Shown piece by piece: positions 1-64,000 of a DNA stretch of 64,000 nucleotides. Position numbers and translations under genes: made by a program. Position 1 is the stretch's first letter. The number at the start of each line of letters is the position of its first letter. The stretch spans positions 1,984,001 through 2,048,000 of the forward strand of contig CAXXLL010000003.1 of NCBI GenBank assembly GCA_963662545.2, written 5' to 3'. The DNA is from Gammaproteobacteria bacterium. Its GTDB lineage: Bacteria > Pseudomonadota > Gammaproteobacteria > Ga0077536. The notes beneath the pieces were generated by a model that had not been told where the DNA came from, searched no databases, and saw only the letters and a list, made by a program, of their open reading frames with translations.

Positions 1-2738
1 GGTCAGTTGCACGTCGATGGTGCCGAGGTTAGTGAGCACGCGGGTGTCCAGCACCCGGTCGGTCGTTCCGGTCAAACTCAGCGAGCCGCCGGCGTTGATG
101 CGGGTTTCACCGGCGTCCTGCATGGTGCCGCCGGACCAGCTGCCGGCGCCGGTGACGGCGAGCAGACCGCTGCCGCCGGGTGTGCCGTCGGTGAACGTAA
201 ACGTGGACGTGGTGATGCTGCCGCTGACGCTTACCGCGCCGTTGTTGATGGCGAGCGCATTTAATGTCGCGGTATTGCCGAAGTCGATGGTGCCCCCGTT
301 GACGGTCACCGTGCCCGTTGCGGTGAAGCCCGCGGCGGCGTCGAAATTCGTGACGCCGTCGTCGATCGTGAGCGACCCGGCGCCGTTGACCGATGAGCCC
401 GCGGCGAAGGTGTTGGTCGAGCCGGGCGCGTTGATGCGGAGCGTGGTGCCCGAGGCGAGCGTAAAGCTGCCGGCATGTGTGCCGGCGGCCGCGAGTGTCA
501 GCGTACCGACGTCGAGCTCGACGACGGCATCGGCGTCGTCCGTCAACGCCGGCAGCGTGACGGCGGTCCCGCCCGTGATGCGCAGGATGCCTAGGTTGAG
601 CAGGCTCAAAGTCGGCGCGAAGGCAAGGTCATTCTGAATGTCGATGATGCGATCGGCGAGGTTAGTGAGCGTGCCGCTGCCAAGGATGTCGCCGCTCGCG
701 CCGGGCATCACCGTGAGGTTACCGGCATTGGTGAGCGCTGCGTTCAGGGTCTTGGTGCTCGTGCCTGTGATGTCGAACACCGCGCCGCCGGCGATGCCGG
801 TCTCGATCGCGAGCGTGCCGCCGCTCCAGTCGAAGTCGTTGACGACAGTGAGGCTGCCGCTGCCGGTCGCCGTGCCGCCCGTCAGCGTCAGCGTATCGAA
901 CAGGGTGTTGCCGTTGAAGGTCTGGGTGCCGGTGCCAACCGTTACGCTGCCCGCGCGGAAGTCGGCATCGATAGTGCGGTTGTCGGTAAAGCTGACTATC
1001 CCCGAGCCCAAGGTGCGCGCATCGAGCAGGCCGCCGCCGAGGTCGATATCCGCAGCAATCAGGATCCCGCCGCTGATGAGACCGTCGCTGTCGCTGTCGG
1101 CTTCGAGTACGAGGTTCAGCGTTTCACCGCCTTGCGCCGTGTCCGTAATCGGGCTGTTGATATTGATGTCGTTGTGCGCAGAGAAGGTTAGTGTATTGGT
1201 GCCGTTCGTGTCGTCGAGCGCGAGTGTCGCGTTCAGATTAATATTGCCGAGTTCGCTCCCGCCGGCAGACGTCGTCACCGTCACGTTCGCGCCGCCTGAC
1301 AGTGCCGCCTCAATCAGATCCACCCCGAGCGAGGCCCCGTCGCCCGTGCTCGGGAACGCGAACGGATCGCTCGTGTCGATATTCGTCGGCGGGCCGGAAC
1401 CCGCAACGATGTCGATGTCGTTCGGGTCGATGAGCCAGGTGCCGCCCGCACCCTCTGGCGCGGTCACGTCGGGCACCGAGGTGACGCTCAGGTTTTGCTT
1501 CGCCGAGGTCTCAATGAGACCGCCGTCGCCGCCTTTAGCGCCGCCGCGCGCGCTCAGGCGTCCGTGCACCGCCGCCGACTCGTCCGCCCACACGATGACC
1601 CGGCCGCCGTCGCCCTTGACGGTCGCATCGGCGGCGATGACGGCGTTCGCCCCGATCACCGTTTGCAGCGCATTCTTAAGCGTCGCGTCGGCGCCCTGGT
1701 AGCCGCCGCCGACGTGGACCGTGCCGCCGCCGCTGGCGCCGCTCGCGTCGAGCCGTCCTTCGACCACCGCCACGCGTTCACCCAGCACCTCGACGCGCCC
1801 GCCGCGCCGCGCGCCTCGACCATGCCGTCCACCCACGTCGTGCCTGCGGTACTCTCGATCCGCACGCTTCCGCCGGCCGCGCCTGAGGCCGACACCGAGC
1901 TGCCCGAGGCAAGCTCGAGGTTCTCGATCGCCGATAGAATGACCGTTCCGGCCTCGTCCACCGACAGGCTGTCCGCGCGCACCTCGCCCGCATGACGCAG
2001 CGTGCCCGCGAACACCTCCACCGCGCCGCCATTCGCGATCAGTTCGCCGAGATTGAGGACTTCATCCTCCGGCGCCTGTATCTCGAAGTGAAGACCGCTG
2101 CCGTCAAGGCTCGAAATCGTAATTTTGCGGCCCGCCGCGAGCAGCAATCGCCCGCCTTCCGACTCGATCACGCCGCTGTTCTCGATATTCGGGGCGAGGA
2201 GGTAGACATCGCCGTTGTTGCGCGTCTTGATGAAACCGCGGTTGACGATGGCGCCGCTGTCGGGGCTGCGCTCGAACTGCAGCTTGCCTTTTAAGAAATT
2301 TTCATCGGTGATGTTGAGGGTCGAGGCAACGAATCCAGCGGTATCGATGACCGCGCCGGAGCCGATGACGATACCGTTGGGATTGATCAGAAATACGCGG
2401 CCGTTCGAAGCGAGCAGGCCGAGAAGCTGCGACGGATCGACGCCGACCACCCGATTCAACACTGCGCTCGAGGGCGATTGCTGGATGAAGCGGGTGATCT
2501 CGCCCGCCCGAATAGAAAAATTCCGCCAGTTGATGATCGCGTTGGGCGTATTCGTAATGTTCAACACACCCGGCCCGGGCACGTGGAACGCCGCACGTCC
2601 ATGGACGACGCGCGCACCGCCCGGATTCGCGCCCGCGGTGCTCATGATCAGCGCACAGAGGCACAGACCGTGAGCAGCCTGACAGACCCATTTTCTGATG
2701 ATCGCTCCTCGTATCATCTTATCCTTGGTCGATCTCAA
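1..2738 (-). CDS. Large filamentous-haemagglutinin-type exoprotein (two-partner secretion domain), frameshifted near 1805, runs off the window's left edge
   Basis: ORF 1656..2738 has a signal peptide and TPS secretion-domain motifs (AIINW, SAVLNRV, NGRVFLINPNG). After ...MVEARG the homologous sequence continues in another frame (GGRVEVLGERV...GGTVHVGGGYQG...GDGGRVIVWAD...GGTWLIDP) and appears open to base 1. Confidence 0.85.
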
Positions 2739-4700: not shown

Positions 4701-5621
4701 TTGAAGAAGACTTTTATCATTTTCAGCGTCTTGATACTGCTGATCTTGGGCGCCTTGGCTGTGACCGTATCGATATACGATTTCGACCAATGGAAGGCGC
4801 CACTCGCTGCGCAGGTCAAGGCGGCAACTGGCTATGACATTACCATCGCCGGGGACATTAGCGTAAAGGGCTCTTATGTCCCTACCTTGGTCGTCAATGA
4901 TATTTCAATCGCGAATGTTGCCTGGGCGAGTCAAGAGAAATTCGTCGAGATTGCGCGAGTCGAGGTGCGACCGTCCATCGTGTCCATCTTGTTCGGATCG
5001 CTGATCGCCGAGGAGGTTTTATTCGACGGCGTTCGCGTCAATTTTGAAACCGACGGTGATGGCGGTGCGAACTGGCGGCAACAACGTGACGGCGCGGTGG
5101 CGGAGAATGCCCTGGACTTCGACATGAGCGCGGTGGCGCTCCGGAAACTTTCTGGTTTCGACATCAAGCTGCGGTTTCGTAGCGGTTGGGCGCAGATGGA
5201 GGATGTCTATCGCGTCAACGAGGTGACTGTCGCCACCAATGCACCGGCCAAACCGATTTCGATCGCGCTGTCCGGTGTCGTTCGAAATCACGCGCTCGAG
5301 ATCATCGGGACCATCGGGACGCTGGAAAGTTACGCGCAAAATAAATCGGCGTCGGTCGCATTGCAGGGCTCCTATGGCGGTGCGGAAATGACGCTGAGCG
5401 GCTCCATCAGTCAATCCAGAGTCTTCGCGGGCATCGATCTCGATTTTAAACTGCATGCGGAAACATTGAATGATTTCGGTCCGGTCACGCTCGGTACGAC
5501 AGGCGTATACGAGCTGCCAAAAGATCAGCCCGTTCGAATCGTCGCGCACGCGACGAGTACCGAGTTTGGTCCGCAGATCGAAAATTTCGAACTTCGCATT
5601 GGCAACCTGATTCTCAAATAG
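4701..5621 (+). CDS. AsmA family protein (N-terminal AsmA region only)
   Basis: N-terminal TM anchor followed by QVKAATGYDITIAGDI...IANVAWA...LETDGDGGANW-like AsmA pattern. Confidence 0.75.
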   Translation: MKKTFIIFSVLILLILGALAVTVSIYDFDQWKAPLAAQVKAATGYDITIAGDISVKGSYVPTLVVNDISIANVAWASQEKFVEIARVEVRPSIVSILFGSLIAEEVLFDGVRVNFETDGDGGANWRQQRDGAVAENALDFDMSAVALRKLSGFDIKLRFRSGWAQMEDVYRVNEVTVATNAPAKPISIALSGVVRNHALEIIGTIGTLESYAQNKSASVALQGSYGGAEMTLSGSISQSRVFAGIDLDFKLHAETLNDFGPVTLGTTGVYELPKDQPVRIVAHATSTEFGPQIENFELRIGNLILK

Positions 5622-5690
5622 AAGGACTAGTCGGGTAAGACCTGACCGCAATTCGCACGGTAGAATGAAACGGTAGGTTGGGGCGATGAC

Positions 5691-7247
5691 ATGACGGAGA
5701 CTCGGGAAGGGCGTGCGAGTGTTTGCGTGATCGGCGCCGGCATAGCTGGGCTGGTGACCGCCAAGGTCTTCGGTGAAGATGGTTTCGACGTTACCGTATT
5801 CGAGAAAGAATCGGCCCTCGGGGGGACATGGGCCGCTGCACGTAGTTACCCGGGTCTGCGCACTAACAACTGCAAATACACCTACGCGTTTTCCGATTTT
5901 CCATATCCGGAGTCCGTCGATGTATACCCGCAAGCCGATCAGGTGCGTAGATACCTCGAATCCTACGCCGATCATTTCGGTATCCGCTCGCGAATAAACT
6001 TCGACCGACACGTAAGCCGTATCGCGCGATCGAGCGCAGGCGGCGATCGATATGAAATAGTCCTACAACCGACCGGCGGCGGTGCGGAACAAAGCGCCGA
6101 ATTCGATTTCGTCGTCGTGTGTAACGGGGTATTCCATCTCCCCCACATGCCGACGATCGAGGGCATGTCCGACTTCGCCGGGCGGATCGTGGCCTCCTGC
6201 GACGTAACCGATGCTATCTACGAGCAAAGCAAGCACCCGATCGTCGTTGGTGGCGGCAAATCTGCGCTCGACTCCGCGACAGGCGCCGCGAAGCGCGGCC
6301 TGTCGCCCACTCTCGTGTTTCGGCATCCGCACTGGATCGCACCGCGTTTTCTTCCAGGCGGGATTCCCGGCGATTTCGTCATTTTGTTGCGGTTGACGGC
6401 ATCGACCTTGCGTTATCACGAACTACACGGCATCGATCGGTTTCTGCAGACGGTCGGGAAACCGCTGTCGGATTTGTGGTGGACGTTCGTTTCCTTCATT
6501 TTCCCTAAGATTTTAGGGATGCCACGGGAACTCACACCCGATCCGCTGCCGCATGATCTGGAAAGATTCGGGGTGGGCGGGGAATTTTTCGATGAATTCA
6601 ACGCCGGCCGCGCGAAGGCCGTCGCCGGTGAGATCAAGCGATTCAAGCAAAACAGCGTCGAATTGACGAACGGAAAAGAAATCCCGGCGGATCTCGTTAT
6701 CTTTGCAACGGGCTGGGAACAAGACATGTCGTTTCTGGCCGATGATCTCCGCGAAGAAATCGTGCACCAGGGCCGCTTTCGCCTCTACCGGCATCTGCTG
6801 CCGCCAACGGCACAGCGGATTGGATTTGTCGGCTATGCGTCCTCCGTGGCGGCGCAGCTCACCGCTGAGATAGGCGCGCATTGGCTTTCGCAGTGTTTCC
6901 TCGGTGCCTTGTCATTGCCTTCGGTCGAAGACATGGAACAAGAAATTGACCGCGTCCATGCCTGGGCAGCAGAAACCATGCCGAGCCGCCGCGCCGGTTA
7001 CTTCGTCGGCGCTTTTGTCCCGCAGTACGTCGATGACCTGGTGAGGGACATGGGACTTCCCACCAAACGCACCGGCAACTTCATCAAGGAATACCTGACA
7101 CCCTTTTTCGCATCACGCTTTTCGAACCTGGGTGAAGAGCGGCGCAGGAGCCGTGAAGGGCTGGCCGCATTGCCGCGCGGATTCTATTTCAGCGGCGTGC
7201 ATGCCGGTATCGCCGCCCTTGTGATCGTTCTCGTGCTGTGGTGGTAG
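5691..7247 (+). CDS. Flavin-containing monooxygenase (FMO-like)
   Basis: GAGIAG FAD motif, GGTW..YPGL, GGGKSA NADPH motif, FATG and a C-terminal TM helix. Confidence 0.9.
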   Translation: MTETREGRASVCVIGAGIAGLVTAKVFGEDGFDVTVFEKESALGGTWAAARSYPGLRTNNCKYTYAFSDFPYPESVDVYPQADQVRRYLESYADHFGIRSRINFDRHVSRIARSSAGGDRYEIVLQPTGGGAEQSAEFDFVVVCNGVFHLPHMPTIEGMSDFAGRIVASCDVTDAIYEQSKHPIVVGGGKSALDSATGAAKRGLSPTLVFRHPHWIAPRFLPGGIPGDFVILLRLTASTLRYHELHGIDRFLQTVGKPLSDLWWTFVSFIFPKILGMPRELTPDPLPHDLERFGVGGEFFDEFNAGRAKAVAGEIKRFKQNSVELTNGKEIPADLVIFATGWEQDMSFLADDLREEIVHQGRFRLYRHLLPPTAQRIGFVGYASSVAAQLTAEIGAHWLSQCFLGALSLPSVEDMEQEIDRVHAWAAETMPSRRAGYFVGAFVPQYVDDLVRDMGLPTKRTGNFIKEYLTPFFASRFSNLGEERRRSREGLAALPRGFYFSGVHAGIAALVIVLVLWW

Positions 7248-58474: not shown

Positions 58475-60070
58475 ATGAAAGATCTCGACACCATTGTCGT
58501 TGGCGCCGGCTTTACCGGCCTTTATGCACTCTACCGACTGCGCGAAAACGGTCTCGAGGTTCGCGCGTTCGAAGCGGGAGAGGGCGTTGGTGGCACCTGG
58601 TACTGGAACCGCTATCCCGGCGCGCGTACCGACTCGCCCAGCTACATGTACCAGTTCTGGTTTTCTGACGACCTGTTACGGGAGTGGGACTGGAGCGAAC
58701 GGTTCCCGGCACAAGAAGAAACCGAACGGTATCTCAACTTCGTCGCCGACAAGTTCGATCTGCGAAAAGACATTCAGTTTAATACGCGAGTCGTTGCGGC
58801 GGCCTTCGATGAGACGGCCGGCCGCTGGACTATCACCACCGCAGACGGTGAGCAGTGCTCGGCGAAATTTTTGGTGATGGGTACCGGGGTGTTGACCAAG
58901 ATTGCCTTGCCGGAGATACCCGGGCGCGATGATTTCGGAGGCGTTTCGTACCACACGGCAGCCTGGCCGAAAGCGCCGGTCGACTTCAGCGGCAAACGCG
59001 TAGGTGTATTCGGCACGGGTGCAACGGGGATTCAGGTGATCCAGACGATCGCAAGTGAGGTTGGTCACCTCACCGTATTTCAGCGAACGCCGACCTACAC
59101 CATACCGATTCGCAACCCAAAATATGATGACGCCGAGCGCGAAAAGCTGCGCGCCCGCTACCCTGAACTCAAACAGCGCGTGCACGAGACGTTTGCGGGC
59201 TTCGATTTCACGTTTGATCCGCGGAGTATTTTCGAGGTCTCAGAGAAAGAACGGCGGAAGGTGATGGAGGCGTTGTGGGAGGACGGTTCCTTGAGCTTTT
59301 GGGTCGGGTCTTTCGCCGATGTTCTGACGGATCAGGCCGCCAATGACATCTTCTCCGAATTCGTGCGGGAAAAGATCCGCGCCCGCATTAACGATCCGGA
59401 AGTGGCTCGTAGGCTGCTCCCGACGGGATACAGCTTTGGTACCCGCCGCGTGCCCCTGGAGAATCATTACTACGAAGCCTTCAATCGTGCCAATGTGACA
59501 TTGGTGGACTTGCGTGAGACAGCCATCGAAAAAATCACTCCGCATGGCGTAACAACGACCGCCGGCGAACATGAGCTCGACATCCTGGTCTACGCGACCG
59601 GCTTCGACGCCGCCACCGGTGCGCTGACGCAAATAGACATCTTTGGGCGCGACGGCAAGATCCTTCGGGACGTGTGGGCCGAAGACATCCGCAGTTTCAT
59701 GGGCCTGCAGGTTCATGGTTACCCGAATATGTTCATGGTCAATGGACCTTTGTCACCGGCCGCGGCTTTCTGCAACGTTCCGACCTGCATTCAGCAACAA
59801 GTCGACTGGATTTCGGACTGCATTGCGTACGTCCGGCAGCAAAAGCATCAATCGATCGAGCCCAGCGCCGAGGCGGAAGCACAATGGGTCGAACACAGCG
59901 ATGAACTGGCCAATCAAACGCTCTTTCCCACGACCAATTCGTGGTACATGGGCGCCAATATCGAGGGTAAAAACCGCCGGCTGCTGGCGTACGTCGGCGG
60001 CGTTAATGTGTACCGCGGGCTTTGCGACGAAGTCAAAGCCAATAAATACGAGGCGTTCGAACTCGTTTAA
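58475..60070 (+). CDS. Baeyer-Villiger monooxygenase
   Basis: GAGFTG, GGTWYWNRYPG, FGGVSYHTAAWP fingerprint and GTGATG. Confidence 0.95.
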   Translation: MKDLDTIVVGAGFTGLYALYRLRENGLEVRAFEAGEGVGGTWYWNRYPGARTDSPSYMYQFWFSDDLLREWDWSERFPAQEETERYLNFVADKFDLRKDIQFNTRVVAAAFDETAGRWTITTADGEQCSAKFLVMGTGVLTKIALPEIPGRDDFGGVSYHTAAWPKAPVDFSGKRVGVFGTGATGIQVIQTIASEVGHLTVFQRTPTYTIPIRNPKYDDAEREKLRARYPELKQRVHETFAGFDFTFDPRSIFEVSEKERRKVMEALWEDGSLSFWVGSFADVLTDQAANDIFSEFVREKIRARINDPEVARRLLPTGYSFGTRRVPLENHYYEAFNRANVTLVDLRETAIEKITPHGVTTTAGEHELDILVYATGFDAATGALTQIDIFGRDGKILRDVWAEDIRSFMGLQVHGYPNMFMVNGPLSPAAAFCNVPTCIQQQVDWISDCIAYVRQQKHQSIEPSAEAEAQWVEHSDELANQTLFPTTNSWYMGANIEGKNRRLLAYVGGVNVYRGLCDEVKANKYEAFELV

Positions 60071-60159
60071 TTGAAAAACTAGAAGGTTTGCCTGCCAGGG
60101 TGCGTGGGCCCCAGGCAACCATCCCTTTTGAACGTCTTCGGCTCGCAGCGCGCCCGAGA

Positions 60160-60344
60160 CTAGCGCGCCCGCCGACGCTCGTGTGTGGGTACGAGCCGAT
60201 CAACGATCCCAACGGCCGCATCGGCCTTGGCTGCGAAAGAATCGTCGACCAATCGCCCGCCGCGTTTTTGGATCTCGCCGTCGATGATCACGGTGTCGAC
60301 ATCCTCGGCAGTTGCGGGCAGCACGATCGACGTCACCGGATCGA
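60160..60344 (-). pseudogene. C-terminal remnant of a metal-dependent amidohydrolase
   Basis: DPVTSIV..A...DVDTVIIDG..KRGG.LV, cut at the oriIS copy. Confidence 0.6.
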
Positions 60345-60501
60345 AGGTATAAGCCGAATAAACGCCCTTTTCCGCAAATCCGTCGAGTACCGCCAGGTCA
60401 TCCAACAGTCGTCAACCTGCGCTTCGAGGCGGTGTTGGCCGGAATTGCGCCTCGGAGTCAGCAGGAATCCCGCATTTCAGGGCGATTTTCGAGGTGTTCC
60501 G
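60345..60501 (-). mobile_element. Second copy of the IS91/ISCR oriIS end
   Basis: 157 bp with 5 mismatches to 62274-62430; ends GGGCGTTTATTCGGCTTATAC on the - strand. Confidence 0.85.
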
Positions 60502-60616
60502 GCGTCGATATAGCCCATGTCCCCTTTATCGAAACCTGCCTCCGTCCGGCTCTTGATCTAGACCGCTTGTACATTGATTTTAATCCGCTCACGCAGCGAT
60601 TATTCTTTAACTCAAC

Positions 60617-61681
60617 TTAATTGGTTAATGGTTGAGAATTGTCTTTCTGAACAACTCCCACCTCTCCTCTCCAGCCACTTGTTCTTAGCCATGTTTCAAA
60701 CGTGCTGAGATCTGGATGGAGGTCGCGCAGCATGTTTATATCGCGAGAAAGACCAAAACGTTCAATGAAACTGAACATATTCGATAGCGCCGGGGTCTCA
60801 GGTTGATTTATCGCTTTGTATTCTGACAGTGTGTAGGGCTCAAATACCGCGTCTATGCCGGTTACACTTTGGAAGATCTTGCCAATCTCTTGAATGGGTA
60901 GAGAATCTGAAATAATCCGCAATGTCCGCCCTCTCCACTGCTGTTCGTGGTTGAGAATTTGTGCTGCAAACCACCCAATATCGTTGAGGGTCACCATCGG
61001 CCATAGAGCCGAGCCGATAGGTACCCTAAGTAATAGGCGTGGCTTATCTCGTACGACTTCAAGGCGAACCGCTGCTCTATCCCCGCCACCTCGAAACATT
61101 CGGCCAGCTTTAAAATTTTCCATATAAGGCGCCGTCACAAATATCGTTACATGCTCGGCATACCATCTAACCGACTGCCTCTGCTCATTTATAAATTGCT
61201 CTACGCGCGCTTTAGCGTCGAAGTGAGGAGCCGGGAATAATCCACCGGAAGGGCTATCCGTAGCATCCAGTGAGCTGAAGACGAAATGTTCAACACCTTC
61301 TTGACGCGCGAGTTCCAATATCAGCTTTCCCTGTTGTACGTCGGTGTCCTCAGCCATTCGATAAAGCGGCCAAGGATCCGTGCCCAGCTTGCCGTGATGT
61401 GCCCAAACATCTTGAAGGCATGACCAAAAGTTTGTATTGCAAAAGATCGAATGCGCACCACCAATAGCAGCTCTGAGGCTTGCTTCGTTGTCAACATTGC
61501 CCTTTTCGAGCTTCACCTTGCCGCGCCCCAACTTTTGCAATTTGCGACACTCGCTACCTGATGGGTTGCGCGTAAAAATACGTATTTGCTTAAACGTATT
61601 TTTTGATTTCAGCAGGTTCTTGATTACGTGCTGGCCCATTGCTCCCGAGCCGCCGATAACAAGCAGTGTTCGCTCAATCAA
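60617..61681 (-). CDS. NmrA/HSCARG family NAD(P)-binding protein
   Basis: GGSGAMG, QGK, HFVFSS, HFDAK, YMENF and DIG motifs; low GC. Confidence 0.88.
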   Translation of the reverse strand: MIERTLLVIGGSGAMGQHVIKNLLKSKNTFKQIRIFTRNPSGSECRKLQKLGRGKVKLEKGNVDNEASLRAAIGGAHSIFCNTNFWSCLQDVWAHHGKLGTDPWPLYRMAEDTDVQQGKLILELARQEGVEHFVFSSLDATDSPSGGLFPAPHFDAKARVEQFINEQRQSVRWYAEHVTIFVTAPYMENFKAGRMFRGGGDRAAVRLEVVRDKPRLLLRVPIGSALWPMVTLNDIGWFAAQILNHEQQWRGRTLRIISDSLPIQEIGKIFQSVTGIDAVFEPYTLSEYKAINQPETPALSNMFSFIERFGLSRDINMLRDLHPDLSTFETWLRTSGWRGEVGVVQKDNSQPLTN

Positions 61682-61759
61682 GAATTGCTTCCTTTGTGAA
61701 TTCCAACAGTTGCGATTGGGTTTATTGCCAAGATAGCGGTGAACGATCGCTATCTCTCA

Positions 61760-62140
61760 CTACCTATCCGTCACAATCTTACGATATGTGCGTTTCGACA
61801 CAATTTCATTCGTGTCATTGAACGTAAAAATGTCGATTGCATGCACATCGAGTTTCTTGGCGGCGCATTGAACGTGAATTTCGTGGATGATGCTGTCATC
61901 GCACGAATACGCTCGGATCGTTTTGTATGAAATGCCTGGATTGGATCGGAAGGTATCGTTTATCGCATTGCGTACTGCGACAATACCTTCATATTTAGCT
62001 CCGGCCGGAGCGGGACCAACGGCGAATTCCCATATTGGGTGTTTCGCCATCAGAGCAAGCGCAGCCTCTGTGTCGTTATCGTCGAATGCCTGCACGAATT
62101 TCGAAGCCAGCATTTCCCTTCTAGCTTTTTTGGATTTCAT
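61760..62140 (-). CDS. SnoaL-like / NTF2 family protein
   Basis: FVQAFD..D, G..AVR and DIFTF...IVSK.TY pattern; low GC. Confidence 0.75.
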   Translation of the reverse strand: MKSKKARREMLASKFVQAFDDNDTEAALALMAKHPIWEFAVGPAPAGAKYEGIVAVRNAINDTFRSNPGISYKTIRAYSCDDSIIHEIHVQCAAKKLDVHAIDIFTFNDTNEIVSKRTYRKIVTDR

Positions 62141-62682
62141 ATATCTCGCTCTCCACCCTCGCTCTCCACTCGAAACCGAAACTAATTCTCAGACTTGCAC
62201 GCTCCGGATTTAATTTTCAAGCTCGGACAATAATCCCAGTTGCCGGAGTTGACTGGCTGAAATGAACCTCGCTAGGTATAAGCCGAATAAACGCCCTTTT
62301 CTGCAAATCCGTCGAGTATCGCCAGGTCATCCAACAATCGTCAACCTGCGCTGCGAGGCGGTGTTGGCCGGAATTGCGCCTCGGAGTCAGCAGGAATCCC
62401 GCATTTCAGGGCGATTTTCGAGATGTTCCGACCGTTGGCACGATAGCGACCGTGCCGCGTCGCTGGGTATCGCAGCCTCGGAGTAGCATGTGGGGATGCC
62501 CGTGTATCAGGCGAACAAGCTGGCCTGGGGCGGCGCCCGACACGGGGGAAAATGCCGGGCGGCGCCGGCAGCGTCTTTACGGTCGAGGTGGGTGAGGATC
62601 TTCTCGATGACCACCGGATCCTCGATGCAGGCGATGATCTTGACGCGGCCGCCGCAAGTCCTACAGGTCTCGATGTCGATGT

Positions 62683-62729
62683 GGCCTACAGGGATGTAGG
62701 TCAGGGGCGTGAGCAGGACGCGGAAGCTT
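62683..62729 (+). repeat. 47-nt GGA-hairpin insertion (family C)
   Basis: CCTACAGGGATGTAGG hairpin plus CAGGACG and CGGAAG. Removal restores RVFNIDI. Confidence 0.8.
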
Positions 62730-62761
62730 TGAATACCCGCTTCAAGCGCTGCGCCCAGGTC

Positions 62762-62812
62762 GCCGCTCTTGCGCATCCCTGCGCCCGCGGCATTAGTGCA
62801 TCCCTGCACGTC
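62762..62812 (-). repeat. 51-nt twin GGA-hairpin insertion (family A)
   Basis: GTGCAGGGATGCAC and GCGCAGGGATGCGC hairpins. Removal restores AMTWAQ. Confidence 0.88.
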
Positions 62813-62941
62813 ATGGCTGCCCGGCGTTCGGCGGGCGTTGTGTCTTCAGGCACATCCGACGCGCCGGCCTTGCTGCCCTTGCCGCGCTTGGCCGGCGTCA
62901 CCTGCGCACGATGCGCGCTGTTGGGGGCGAACACGCCGTGA

Positions 62942-63013
62942 CAAATTTATCTGGAATAAATTTGGACAACCGAAGGTTGCCCGAAGGGTGAGGAACAGGG
63001 ATGTTCCTCATCC
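62942..63013 (+). repeat. 72-nt four-hairpin insertion (family B)
   Basis: Removal restores TRFHGV. It carries the in-frame TAA that ends ORF 62947..63990. Confidence 0.88.
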
Positions 63014-63369
63014 AATCGCGTCAGGTTGACCCTGGGCTTGGGCACCAGGGCGACCAGGCGGGCGATAAAATCCAACGGCTCGAAGATGACGTGCGTGGTG
63101 CCATCTCGGTACGGCGTCTTGAGTTGGTAACGCACGTTGCCGTTGGTCGTGAGCGACAGCCGCTTTTCCGACACCGCCGGCCTTGCAATATAGCGGCACA
63201 AACGTTCCAGCTTCTTGCGTTCATCGGCCCTGGCCGCGACCCCCGCATGCAGCGAGAAGCCAGCCACCGTGCCCACCGAGTTAGCGAACGGCTCATTGCA
63301 ACTCGGCAGGGTCTGCAGCGTGAACACCTTGCGCCCTTGGCTAGCGGCCCCACCGCGATGCGGTACGTG

Positions 63370-63421
63370 GCCGCTCCAGCGCATCCCTGCGCTCCGCGGC
63401 ATTCGTGCTTCCCTGCACATC
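63370..63421 (-). repeat. 52-nt twin GGA-hairpin insertion (family A)
   Basis: GTGCAGGGAAGCAC and GCGCAGGGATGCGC hairpins. Removal restores HSITYRIAVG. Confidence 0.85.
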
Positions 63422-63523
63422 ATCGAGTGGCCAAAGAGCTCATCCAGCGGCCCCGCTTCCCTGGCCTCCCCGGACAGATAGCGGTTCTCGGTATCACGTT
63501 CCAGCAGCCCTTGACGCTCCAGA

Positions 63524-63595
63524 CAAATTCGCCAGGAGCGAATTTGGACGCACGCCGTGCGCCCGCAGGGGGCGCGCCAAGGATGGCGCGCATCC
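63524..63595 (+). repeat. 72-nt four-hairpin insertion (family B)
   Basis: Removal restores GRFLERQG. Same architecture as 62942-63013 with different stem sequences. Confidence 0.88.
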
Positions 63596-63730
63596 AAACG
63601 CCCGACGCGGTGCGCGATGGTGTGCGTCAATTGGGTGAGTTCGGTACTCGTCGGCGCCTTCAACCAGCGAAACCGCGTGCTCGATCCATTGGCGGCATCG
63701 ACATAGACACCATCCAAAAAAATCATGTGG

Positions 63731-63781
63731 GCCGCTGCTGCGCATCCCTGCGCCCGCGGCATTAGTGCATCCATGCACGTC
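63731..63781 (-). repeat. 51-nt twin GGA-hairpin insertion (family A)
   Basis: Near-identical to 62762-62812. Removal restores the HUH motif H-F-H. Confidence 0.88.
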
Positions 63782-64000
63782 AAGTGAAGATTTAGATTGA
63801 GCGCACTCCCAAATCGTTGGATCAGCGTGACCGCGCCAGTGCGAGCCGCGGTGCAGGAAAAGCCCGCCTTTTTGATCAAGTGCGTGGCAATGCAGCGGTA
63901 AACGATGCCGAGCACCTGGCCCATGATCGCCGGACGGCTGGCAAACAAAAAACGTAATGGATACGGAAAACTCAATACCCATTGGCGCACCGGCTGCGCG

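Follow-up and report, generated by a model that had tools for sequence, protein, structure and literature searches.

In this report we examine a 64,000-nt stretch of a gammaproteobacterial genome (contig CAXXLL010000003.1; hereafter the window, whose positions are given as plain numbers), in which a transposase gene of the IS91 family carries two inserts of 72 nt. These inserts are probably copies of a small, non-coding and non-autonomous mobile DNA element that is defined by its fold and not by its sequence. The family to which they belong is widespread in Gammaproteobacteria and essentially undescribed. The two copies are:

62942-63013, plus strand: four-hairpin micro-element copy A, with AT-rich stems (covariance-model score 89.2 bits)
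63524-63595, plus strand: four-hairpin micro-element copy B, with GC-rich stems (covariance-model score 84.4 bits)

A sequence-only reading of the window had proposed that the two inserts share a four-hairpin fold with extensive compensatory changes, and both the plus-strand sequences and the fold are as it described them. Copies A and B are identical at 46 of 72 positions. Ten of their 25 pairs differ on both sides and yet remain paired, one differs on one side and 14 are the same; 17/22 unpaired positions are identical, and permuting the partners over the 11 differing pairs gave p = 0.0005. The proposal that the stems stay paired holds for copy A, in which 25/25 pairs are Watson-Crick, and for 24/25 pairs of copy B; it fails at the outermost pair of hairpin 4, which is G·A in copy B, a loss that the stem lengths (8 vs 7) already imply. 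Folded on the plus strand, one insert reaches -29.3 kcal/mol (z -5.30; 0/200 shuffles as good) and the other -37.8 (z -3.25; 1/200 shuffles as good), and the minus-strand folds have z scores of -5.84 and -4.55 against shuffles. The minus-strand open reading frame (ORF) stops at 62947, within copy A, so this copy carries an in-frame stop, as had been claimed (a TAA on the transposase sense strand), and copy B is an open insert of 24 codons.

Copies of the element measure about 66-90 nt and follow one plan. Hairpin 1, whose loop is YNGGA, begins directly at the 5' end; it is followed by a GGAC or GAAC linker, by hairpin 2, which is variable and usually has a GNA triloop, by hairpin 3, a nearly invariant CCC-GNA-GGG, by hairpin 4, with the apex C-A(N)GGA(Y)-G, and by a tail of 3-6 nt. 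Simple pattern searches recovered about 24 copies in the source genome, with several stem variants. A covariance model built from 20 distinct copies of that genome found 68 matches there (E <= 1) and matched in 26/41 related genomes, across many families of the class. A degenerate (IUPAC) pattern for hairpin 1, used on named genomes, yielded 58 loci, 52 of which are backed by the covariance model and are nearly all gammaproteobacterial; the taxa include metagenome-assembled genomes (MAGs) of Steroidobacteraceae, as well as Paraglaciecola, Psychromonas, Brenneria alni, Dyella, Nitrococcus and Methylomonas. The six unconfirmed loci comprise five from outside the Gammaproteobacteria and one on an unclassified 'uncultured bacterium' contig. 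A copy from an enterobacterial MAG had no match in 5,426 E. coli genomes, and the pattern matched once among viral contigs.

Larger alignments reinforce the covariation, the significance of which we judged by shuffle and slide controls. Among the 20 distinct copies of the source genome, 90.4% of cells are paired, as against 73.5% in shuffles, 14/25 pairs show changes on both sides, and covariation scores 0.462, compared with 0.154 when shuffled (0/500 reach the observed value) and 0.03-0.14 when the partners are slid. The alignment of 64 distinct copies from other genomes, fitted to the model, has 21/25 doubly changed pairs and a score of 0.552 vs 0.153. Selection on the structure and not on an encoded peptide, the central claim of the sequence-only reading, is thus well supported by both alignments; what they do not demonstrate is that the selected structure is an RNA, and strong compensatory covariation is in itself no proof of a functional RNA.

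The host gene was identified by alignment to intact IS91-family transposase genes, and the neighbouring features are as follows:

62507-64000, minus strand: IS91-family (Y2 HUH, ISCR-like) transposase gene, running past the window end (alignment)
63731-63781, minus strand: 51-nt micro-insert of two hairpins, whose minus-strand loops are GGGA/TGGA, at a TT| codon position (alignments)
63370-63421, minus strand: 52-nt two-hairpin micro-insert, with a +2 nt change about 30 nt downstream that brings the total to 54 nt (alignments)
62762-62812, minus strand: 51-nt two-hairpin micro-insert, boundaries uncertain by 2-3 nt (alignments; a contig of run X2 skips from 62758 to 62810)
62682-62728, plus strand: 47-nt micro-insert with an ACA-GGGA-TGT hairpin, shifting the transposase frame (alignments; skip from 62681 to 62729 in contigs of runs X2 and X5)
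62274-62300, minus strand: 3' (oriIS-like) end of the IS91-family element, where similarity to other copies begins

A Y2_Tnp match lies in the host gene (G000:C3:2047016-2047729 in the source genome), and plasmid records annotated 'IS91 family transposase' are 75-77% identical to it in nucleotides, over about 350 nt less than the query. The gene holds eight micro-inserts, six within 62400-64000 and two just beyond the window end, and alignment of 62400-64000 to an intact gene leaves clean gaps of 51, 72, 52, 72, 51 and 47 nt. Aligned to two intact IS91-family genes, copies A and B each stand opposite a gap of exactly 72 nt, after the second base of a codon, which in the window reads CGA TT|T CAC and CGT TT|T CTG. 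The claim that both occupy a TT|T codon stands for copy A, at which the empty site is observed; for copy B the TTT is deduced only, and the intact relatives have TAT. In its present state this gene copy is disrupted, both by copy A's stop and by the insert of 47 nt. A direct repeat of 157 nt, 97% identical, joins 60345-60501 and 62274-62430; of the two, the latter forms the oriIS-side end of the IS91-family element, and the former, 1.9 kb away, therefore looks like a solo end fragment.

Sites without the inserts are present as well. The empty site of copy A, GTGA|AATCG, is read straight across in one contig end of run X15, with no duplicated base, that is, no target duplication, and forms that are a net 72 nt shorter at copy A occur in one X5 contig and one X15 contig. 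Contigs of other runs include forms without a 51-nt insert and without the 47-nt insert, as well as a four-hairpin copy at a further site, after position 63083. A full-length paralogue in the source genome (C3:2499029-2500498) has 0/8 of the inserts.

If the inserts were old parts of an IS91 lineage, copied only together with the insertion sequence, one would look for many near-identical copies at the same site of the transposase, and these exist at reference nt 1160. Nevertheless, four-hairpin inserts occupy six positions in IS91-family transposase genes (reference nt 566, 695/696, 1102, 1115, 1160 and 1325) and occur in both orientations relative to the gene; at nt 566, different transposase copies hold different classes of insert; a 75-nt copy is nested inside another copy, of which the genome retains an uninterrupted paralogue; and copies lie far from any IS91 and in genomes that lack one. 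In our reading, the nested copy, the varied IS91 positions and the genomes without IS91 already contradict an origin as parts of the insertion sequence, which we regard as very improbable.

It is less credible still that the inserts are tiny introns or gaps of translational bypass ('byp'-like), whose removal or skipping would still allow a transposase to be produced. This would suit the fact that both 72-nt inserts are multiples of three placed exactly within a codon, and that, without the six inserts of 62400-64000, the frame runs uninterrupted to its usual stop except for one +2 nt change. That change, however, restores the frame only if the 52-nt insert is kept: with 52+2 = 54, the repair of the frame took place while the insert stayed in, which weighs against removal at the RNA level and suggests that selection still acted on the gene once this insertion had occurred (63330-63421). 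A length of 47 nt, as in another of the inserts, is not divisible by three, and identical elements lie in intergenic DNA, beside tRNA genes and in both orientations. A test of ORFs spanning 68 copies of the source genome, noisy at its high GC content, gave no credible coding host besides IS91 genes; no ribozyme or intron family of Rfam matched 60000-64000 at E <= 10; and the insert flanks have no matching take-off and landing codons in the required frame.

The landing sites outside transposase genes are of three further kinds, namely duplicates of tRNA 3' ends, where the element takes the T-loop position, the tips of palindromic repeats, and other copies of the element itself. On the strand that carries the GGA loops the target is (G/C)A|A: the left flank ends in GA or CA and the right flank begins with A, so that an antisense insertion shows in a gene as TT|T or TT|C. 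These bases come from events with a known empty site and from T-loop cases; the left flanks (GTGA, CAGA, TCGA, TTGA, TGCA, TTCA) amount to two shared bases. The element begins CAAAWT... and ends ...ATCC/GTA/ATA, and has no terminal inverted repeats. Units also stand in head-to-tail arrays of 2-3. The exact tandem arrays belong to a 66-nt subfamily at the tips of palindromic repeats of about 280 nt; at some 14 loci (e.g. G000:C2:2145700-2146500) such a repeat has 22-nt terminal inverted repeats and a tip with one to three 66-nt units.

Here and in other genera alike, elements are repeatedly found in partial tRNA 3' ends that lie downstream of a real tRNA gene, at the T-loop position, with the junctions GGTTCGA|...|ATCC. 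Of three small genomes that have one strong match each, two have it in this tRNA-linked form. The tRNA-linked copies are always co-oriented with the tRNA. In the source genome, tRNA genes for Pro, Ser, Arg and Gln (G000:C3:142300-143000, 5500-6100, 2377950-2378650 and others) precede one to three units, in each of which a long hairpin precedes a pseudo T-stem, then the four-hairpin element at the T-loop position, and finally the tRNA 3' end once more. The long hairpin includes the complement of the tRNA 3' end, and the hairpins vary from unit to unit with their pairing kept.

Were the element a functional RNA, one strand would be expected to tolerate G·U. Its stems consist almost wholly of Watson-Crick pairs: G·T vs A·C mismatches number 5 vs 5 of 500 cells and, in a second set, 25 vs 20 of 1513, and one-sided changes of the G-C to G-U type are rare. 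The loops of hairpins 2 and 3 are GNA triloops closed by C-G, that of hairpin 3 in 42/60 distinct copies of the source genome, a motif described, in the available portions of the sources, for very stable DNA hairpins (PMC3201870, PMC13037366). The almost purely Watson-Crick stems, the scarcity of one-sided changes, the GNA loops and the mixed orientation together speak for a DNA fold as the object of selection, or for palindromes being homogenised as DNA; a role as RNA would be compatible with this. The lack of a G·T excess, the presence of both orientations and the nested copy lead us to a mobile DNA element defined by structure, and away from an intron or a dedicated RNA gene.

We propose that a protein acting in trans would produce or move the copies of this mobile DNA element and would recognise the hairpins, above all CA-NGGA-YG and CCC-GNA-GGG, on single-stranded or extruded DNA, in the manner of HUH-type enzymes. 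Only lineages in which the stems are kept paired would persist, possibly assisted by repair within palindromes, and such a constraint would yield the double compensatory changes.

Several observations weigh against this proposal. No excision or transposition event was observed, and the empty sites could be paralogues that were never filled. A target of 2-3 bases fits poorly with the recurrent use of tRNA T-loops, and a model of pure DNA leaves the match between the GGA loops and the consensus of an RNA-binding protein, described below, as a coincidence. Among the Y1 and Y2 HUH genes examined, none was found that would mobilise the element. The seven Y1 genes of the genome are flanked by other repeats and not by copies of the element, Y1_Tnp is present in 19/26 element-positive and 6/15 element-negative relatives, and it was not found in two element-carrying genomes that are single contigs and 100% complete. 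IS91-family genes are found in only 16/26 element-positive genomes, and the oriIS-type ends (GTTTAT-N8-TATAC) of three resident IS91 copies are unlike those of the element. Elements of the IS200/IS605 type usually show an orientation bias with respect to the replication strand; a hand tally of loci outside IS91 copies gave about 13 vs 19, with no clear bias.

A Y1 or RAYT protein was accordingly set aside as mobiliser, on the grounds of absent adjacency and weak co-occurrence: the element lies within 6 kb of only 1/7 Y1_Tnp loci, at a distance of about 2.4 kb. At G000:C3:129290-130694, a RAYT-like Y1 gene is flanked by GTAG-tagged repetitive extragenic palindromic (REP) sequences, one flanking repeat having as many as about 54 blast matches; it is a REP/RAYT system of the ordinary sort and has no relation to the element.

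The IS91 transposase, rejected as mobiliser when judged by likeness of ends, returns in another form, in which the micro-elements would be non-autonomous partners of IS91-family rolling-circle transposases. Such a partnership would explain the pile-up in IS91 genes, of which the eight micro-inserts in one gene are an example, the exact tandem and head-to-tail arrays (by read-through) and the transfer of 3' flanks: one unit links, through the element, a tRNA-Ser-like 5' part with a 3' end like that of tRNA-Arg, the outcome to be expected of 3' transduction. Among the relatives, the element is present in 16/16 genomes with Y2_Tnp and in 10/25 without, so that 0/15 element-negative genomes have this gene. 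The association is inflated, since IS91 copies carry the element along, and 5/11 of the best loci in relatives are inside IS91-like genes. Ten element-positive genomes have no IS91-family match, some of them with 6-12 copies, and the termini differ from the resident oriIS-type ends as described. We therefore consider a partnership with IS91 rather unlikely.

A different question is whether the entity under selection is an RNA, namely a portable CsrA/RsmA-binding module that, in any transcript containing it (for example from tRNA operons, 3' untranslated regions or arrays), would serve as a decoy or as a regulatory site; this would be compatible with mobility of the DNA. The CsrA consensus obtained by systematic evolution of ligands by exponential enrichment (SELEX) is RUACARGGAUGU, in which ACA and GGA are invariant and GGA is preferred in a hairpin loop, as given in the available part of PMC4347634. 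Copy A matches 11/12 of these positions, and the GGA loops of hairpins 1 and 4 lie in an ACA-RGGA-UGU-like context, a match in sequence only. The apex C-A(N)GGA(N)-G of hairpin 4 is present in 47/60 distinct copies of the source genome and in 46/62 copies of other genomes; the YNGGA loop of hairpin 1 is found in 50/60 own copies, a count to be read with the fact that the own-genome and pattern-derived sets were gathered with queries already containing the hairpin 1 GGA. Every other class of micro-insert in IS91 genes likewise has two (N)GGA-loop hairpins. Hairpins capping CA-NGGA-YG number 90 in the genome, compared with 6-26 for six permuted control motifs, and of 101 such hairpins examined 53 are outside the four-hairpin element and IS91 genes, in further repeat families. 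The genome has one csrA gene, no match to CsrB and a sub-threshold match to PrrB_RsmZ. The consistent co-orientation with tRNA genes and a sub-threshold relative known from RNA-seq (AaHKsRNA22, PMC5909427; see below) would also suit a transcribed module. Nevertheless, the stems lack the G·U tolerance of such an RNA, the element occurs in both orientations within transposase mRNA, and the subfamily linked to tRNA-Arg, -Ser and -Gln in the source genome keeps the architecture and lacks GGA in the loops of hairpins 1 and 4. We hold an RNA as the selected entity to be a tentative alternative, for which the chances are modest.

With similar reserve we put forward that a whole guild of gammaproteobacterial micro-transposons (among them the four-hairpin element, the 51-nt twin hairpin and the 47-49-nt classes) might serve as portable CsrA/RsmA-binding cassettes that rewire or titrate the Csr/Rsm regulon. 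Were this so, each unit would bring two GGA-loop hairpins, sufficient for one CsrA dimer, and would be spread through tRNA operons, untranslated regions, insertion sequences and arrays. The start site of the IS91 transposase looks CsrA-repressible, and the hairpin before its start codon hints at a link between CsrA control and the element guild.

Further hairpins of this type were recorded in the course of the analysis. A GCA-AGGA-YGC hairpin precedes the start codon of the IS91-family transposase, with the Shine-Dalgarno sequence in its loop, and is kept in three resident IS91 copies and one E. coli plasmid copy (L131 about 2104-2135, minus strand; G000:C2 about 725385-725420; G000:C3 about 2048440-2048470 and about 2500499-2500530). 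A CA-NGGA-YG hairpin also stands in other repeat families, dispersed or tandem and at least three in number, e.g. at C2:392181, C2:1034218 and C3:1556539, and other examples are at C3:857718-858192 and C3:1299333-1299488. Beside csrA itself (G000:C3:2531306-2534464), a degenerate tRNA-linked unit with a four-hairpin element follows within about 130 nt, and then tRNA-Ser(gct).

If the reading as a mobile DNA element is correct, then at about 72 nt it would be one of the shortest known mobile elements, maintained through its fold and not its sequence, and nearly absent from the literature and from Rfam though widespread in Gammaproteobacteria. It would offer a natural system in which to study how hairpin shape alone defines a transposable unit, which enzyme moves such units, and why tRNA T-loops and rolling-circle transposase genes are preferred targets. 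The match of its loops to the CsrA consensus would connect selfish DNA with a global post-transcriptional regulator in a way that is open to testing.

Among families already described, no Rfam family attains its threshold for the element. Window copies A and B have no match at E <= 10, and a scan of 60000-64000 at the same limit gave chance-level matches only (best ncS037, E 0.38). The nearest family is RF02902, AaHKsRNA22, which scores 33.2 and 31.0 bits against sibling copies (gathering score 39.8); 0/8 matches in the own genome pass. Its consensus has the same order of parts, namely an ACAAAA-stem, GAAC, a variable hairpin, GCCCC-NNA-GGGGC, GA, a hairpin and GAGUA, and on account of this shared order we take it that a member of the wider family is transcribed in Aggregatibacter; the element differs in that the window copies are unmatched and the best genome score stays below the gathering score. 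The possibility that the model would match a described family, which the sequence-only reading had named as a refutation, is touched only weakly, through these sub-threshold matches of sibling copies. AaHKsRNA22 was defined from Aggregatibacter RNA-seq (PMC5909427), and the available portion of the main text of that study says nothing specific on sRNA 22 and gives neither function nor mobility.

Hairpins with A(N)GGA(Y) loops, the shape bound by CsrA/RsmA, are likewise found in TwoAYGGAY RNAs and in the CsrB/RsmX/Y/Z sponge RNAs; the element differs by two extra hairpins and by its insertion in genes. RF01731 (TwoAYGGAY) had no match in the genome (E <= 1; cut-off 43 bits), a weak blank as the control matched no control genome, and none in 60000-64000 at E <= 10. 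TwoAYGGAY is listed for the human gut, Gammaproteobacteria and Clostridiales in the available part of PMC2864571. Our literature search found no description of the four-hairpin element, of micro-elements that target T-loops or of mobile CsrA-site repeats.

Rickettsia palindromic elements are small hairpin repeats within protein genes, often in frame, and in this they resemble the element, as do the enterobacterial RU-1/ERIC, RU-2/YPAL and RU-3, reported as small intragenic repeats in the available portions of PMC2759123 and PMC2229807. By their descriptions, these repeats are set apart at 100-170 bp and by an inverted-repeat type resembling MITEs (miniature transposable elements with inverted repeats); no likeness in sequence or fold was noticed, though no dedicated comparison was made. 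The terminal inverted repeats and target-site duplication of a classical MITE were not found in the element.

There is also a likeness to non-autonomous derivatives of the IS200/IS605 family, such as palindrome-associated transposable elements (PATEs), and to the ends of IS608 and ISDra2. In both, the ends are asymmetric, hairpins stand at or near both ends, and inverted terminal repeats and target duplication are absent; insertion is beside a short sequence, a fixed tetra- or pentanucleotide in the IS200/IS605 type and, for the element, left flanks that share only two bases. The element differs in having only GA|A as its target, in showing no clear replication-strand bias and in the absence of Y1_Tnp from some carriers, and no full-length Y1 TnpA partner with matching ends was found among the Y1 genes of the genome.

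A last comparison is with REPs and REPINs. The element is without their GTAG or CGTC tag, has four hairpins with conserved loops where they have one imperfect palindrome of 20-40 nt, occurs inside genes and does not flank a RAYT gene; the GTAG-tagged REPs of this genome, which flank the RAYT at C3:129518, are a separate family. In common with REPs and REPINs, the element is short, abundant, non-coding and hairpin-forming, varies in sequence while its pairing is kept, leaves no target duplication and is presumed to move in trans by an enzyme acting on single-stranded DNA.

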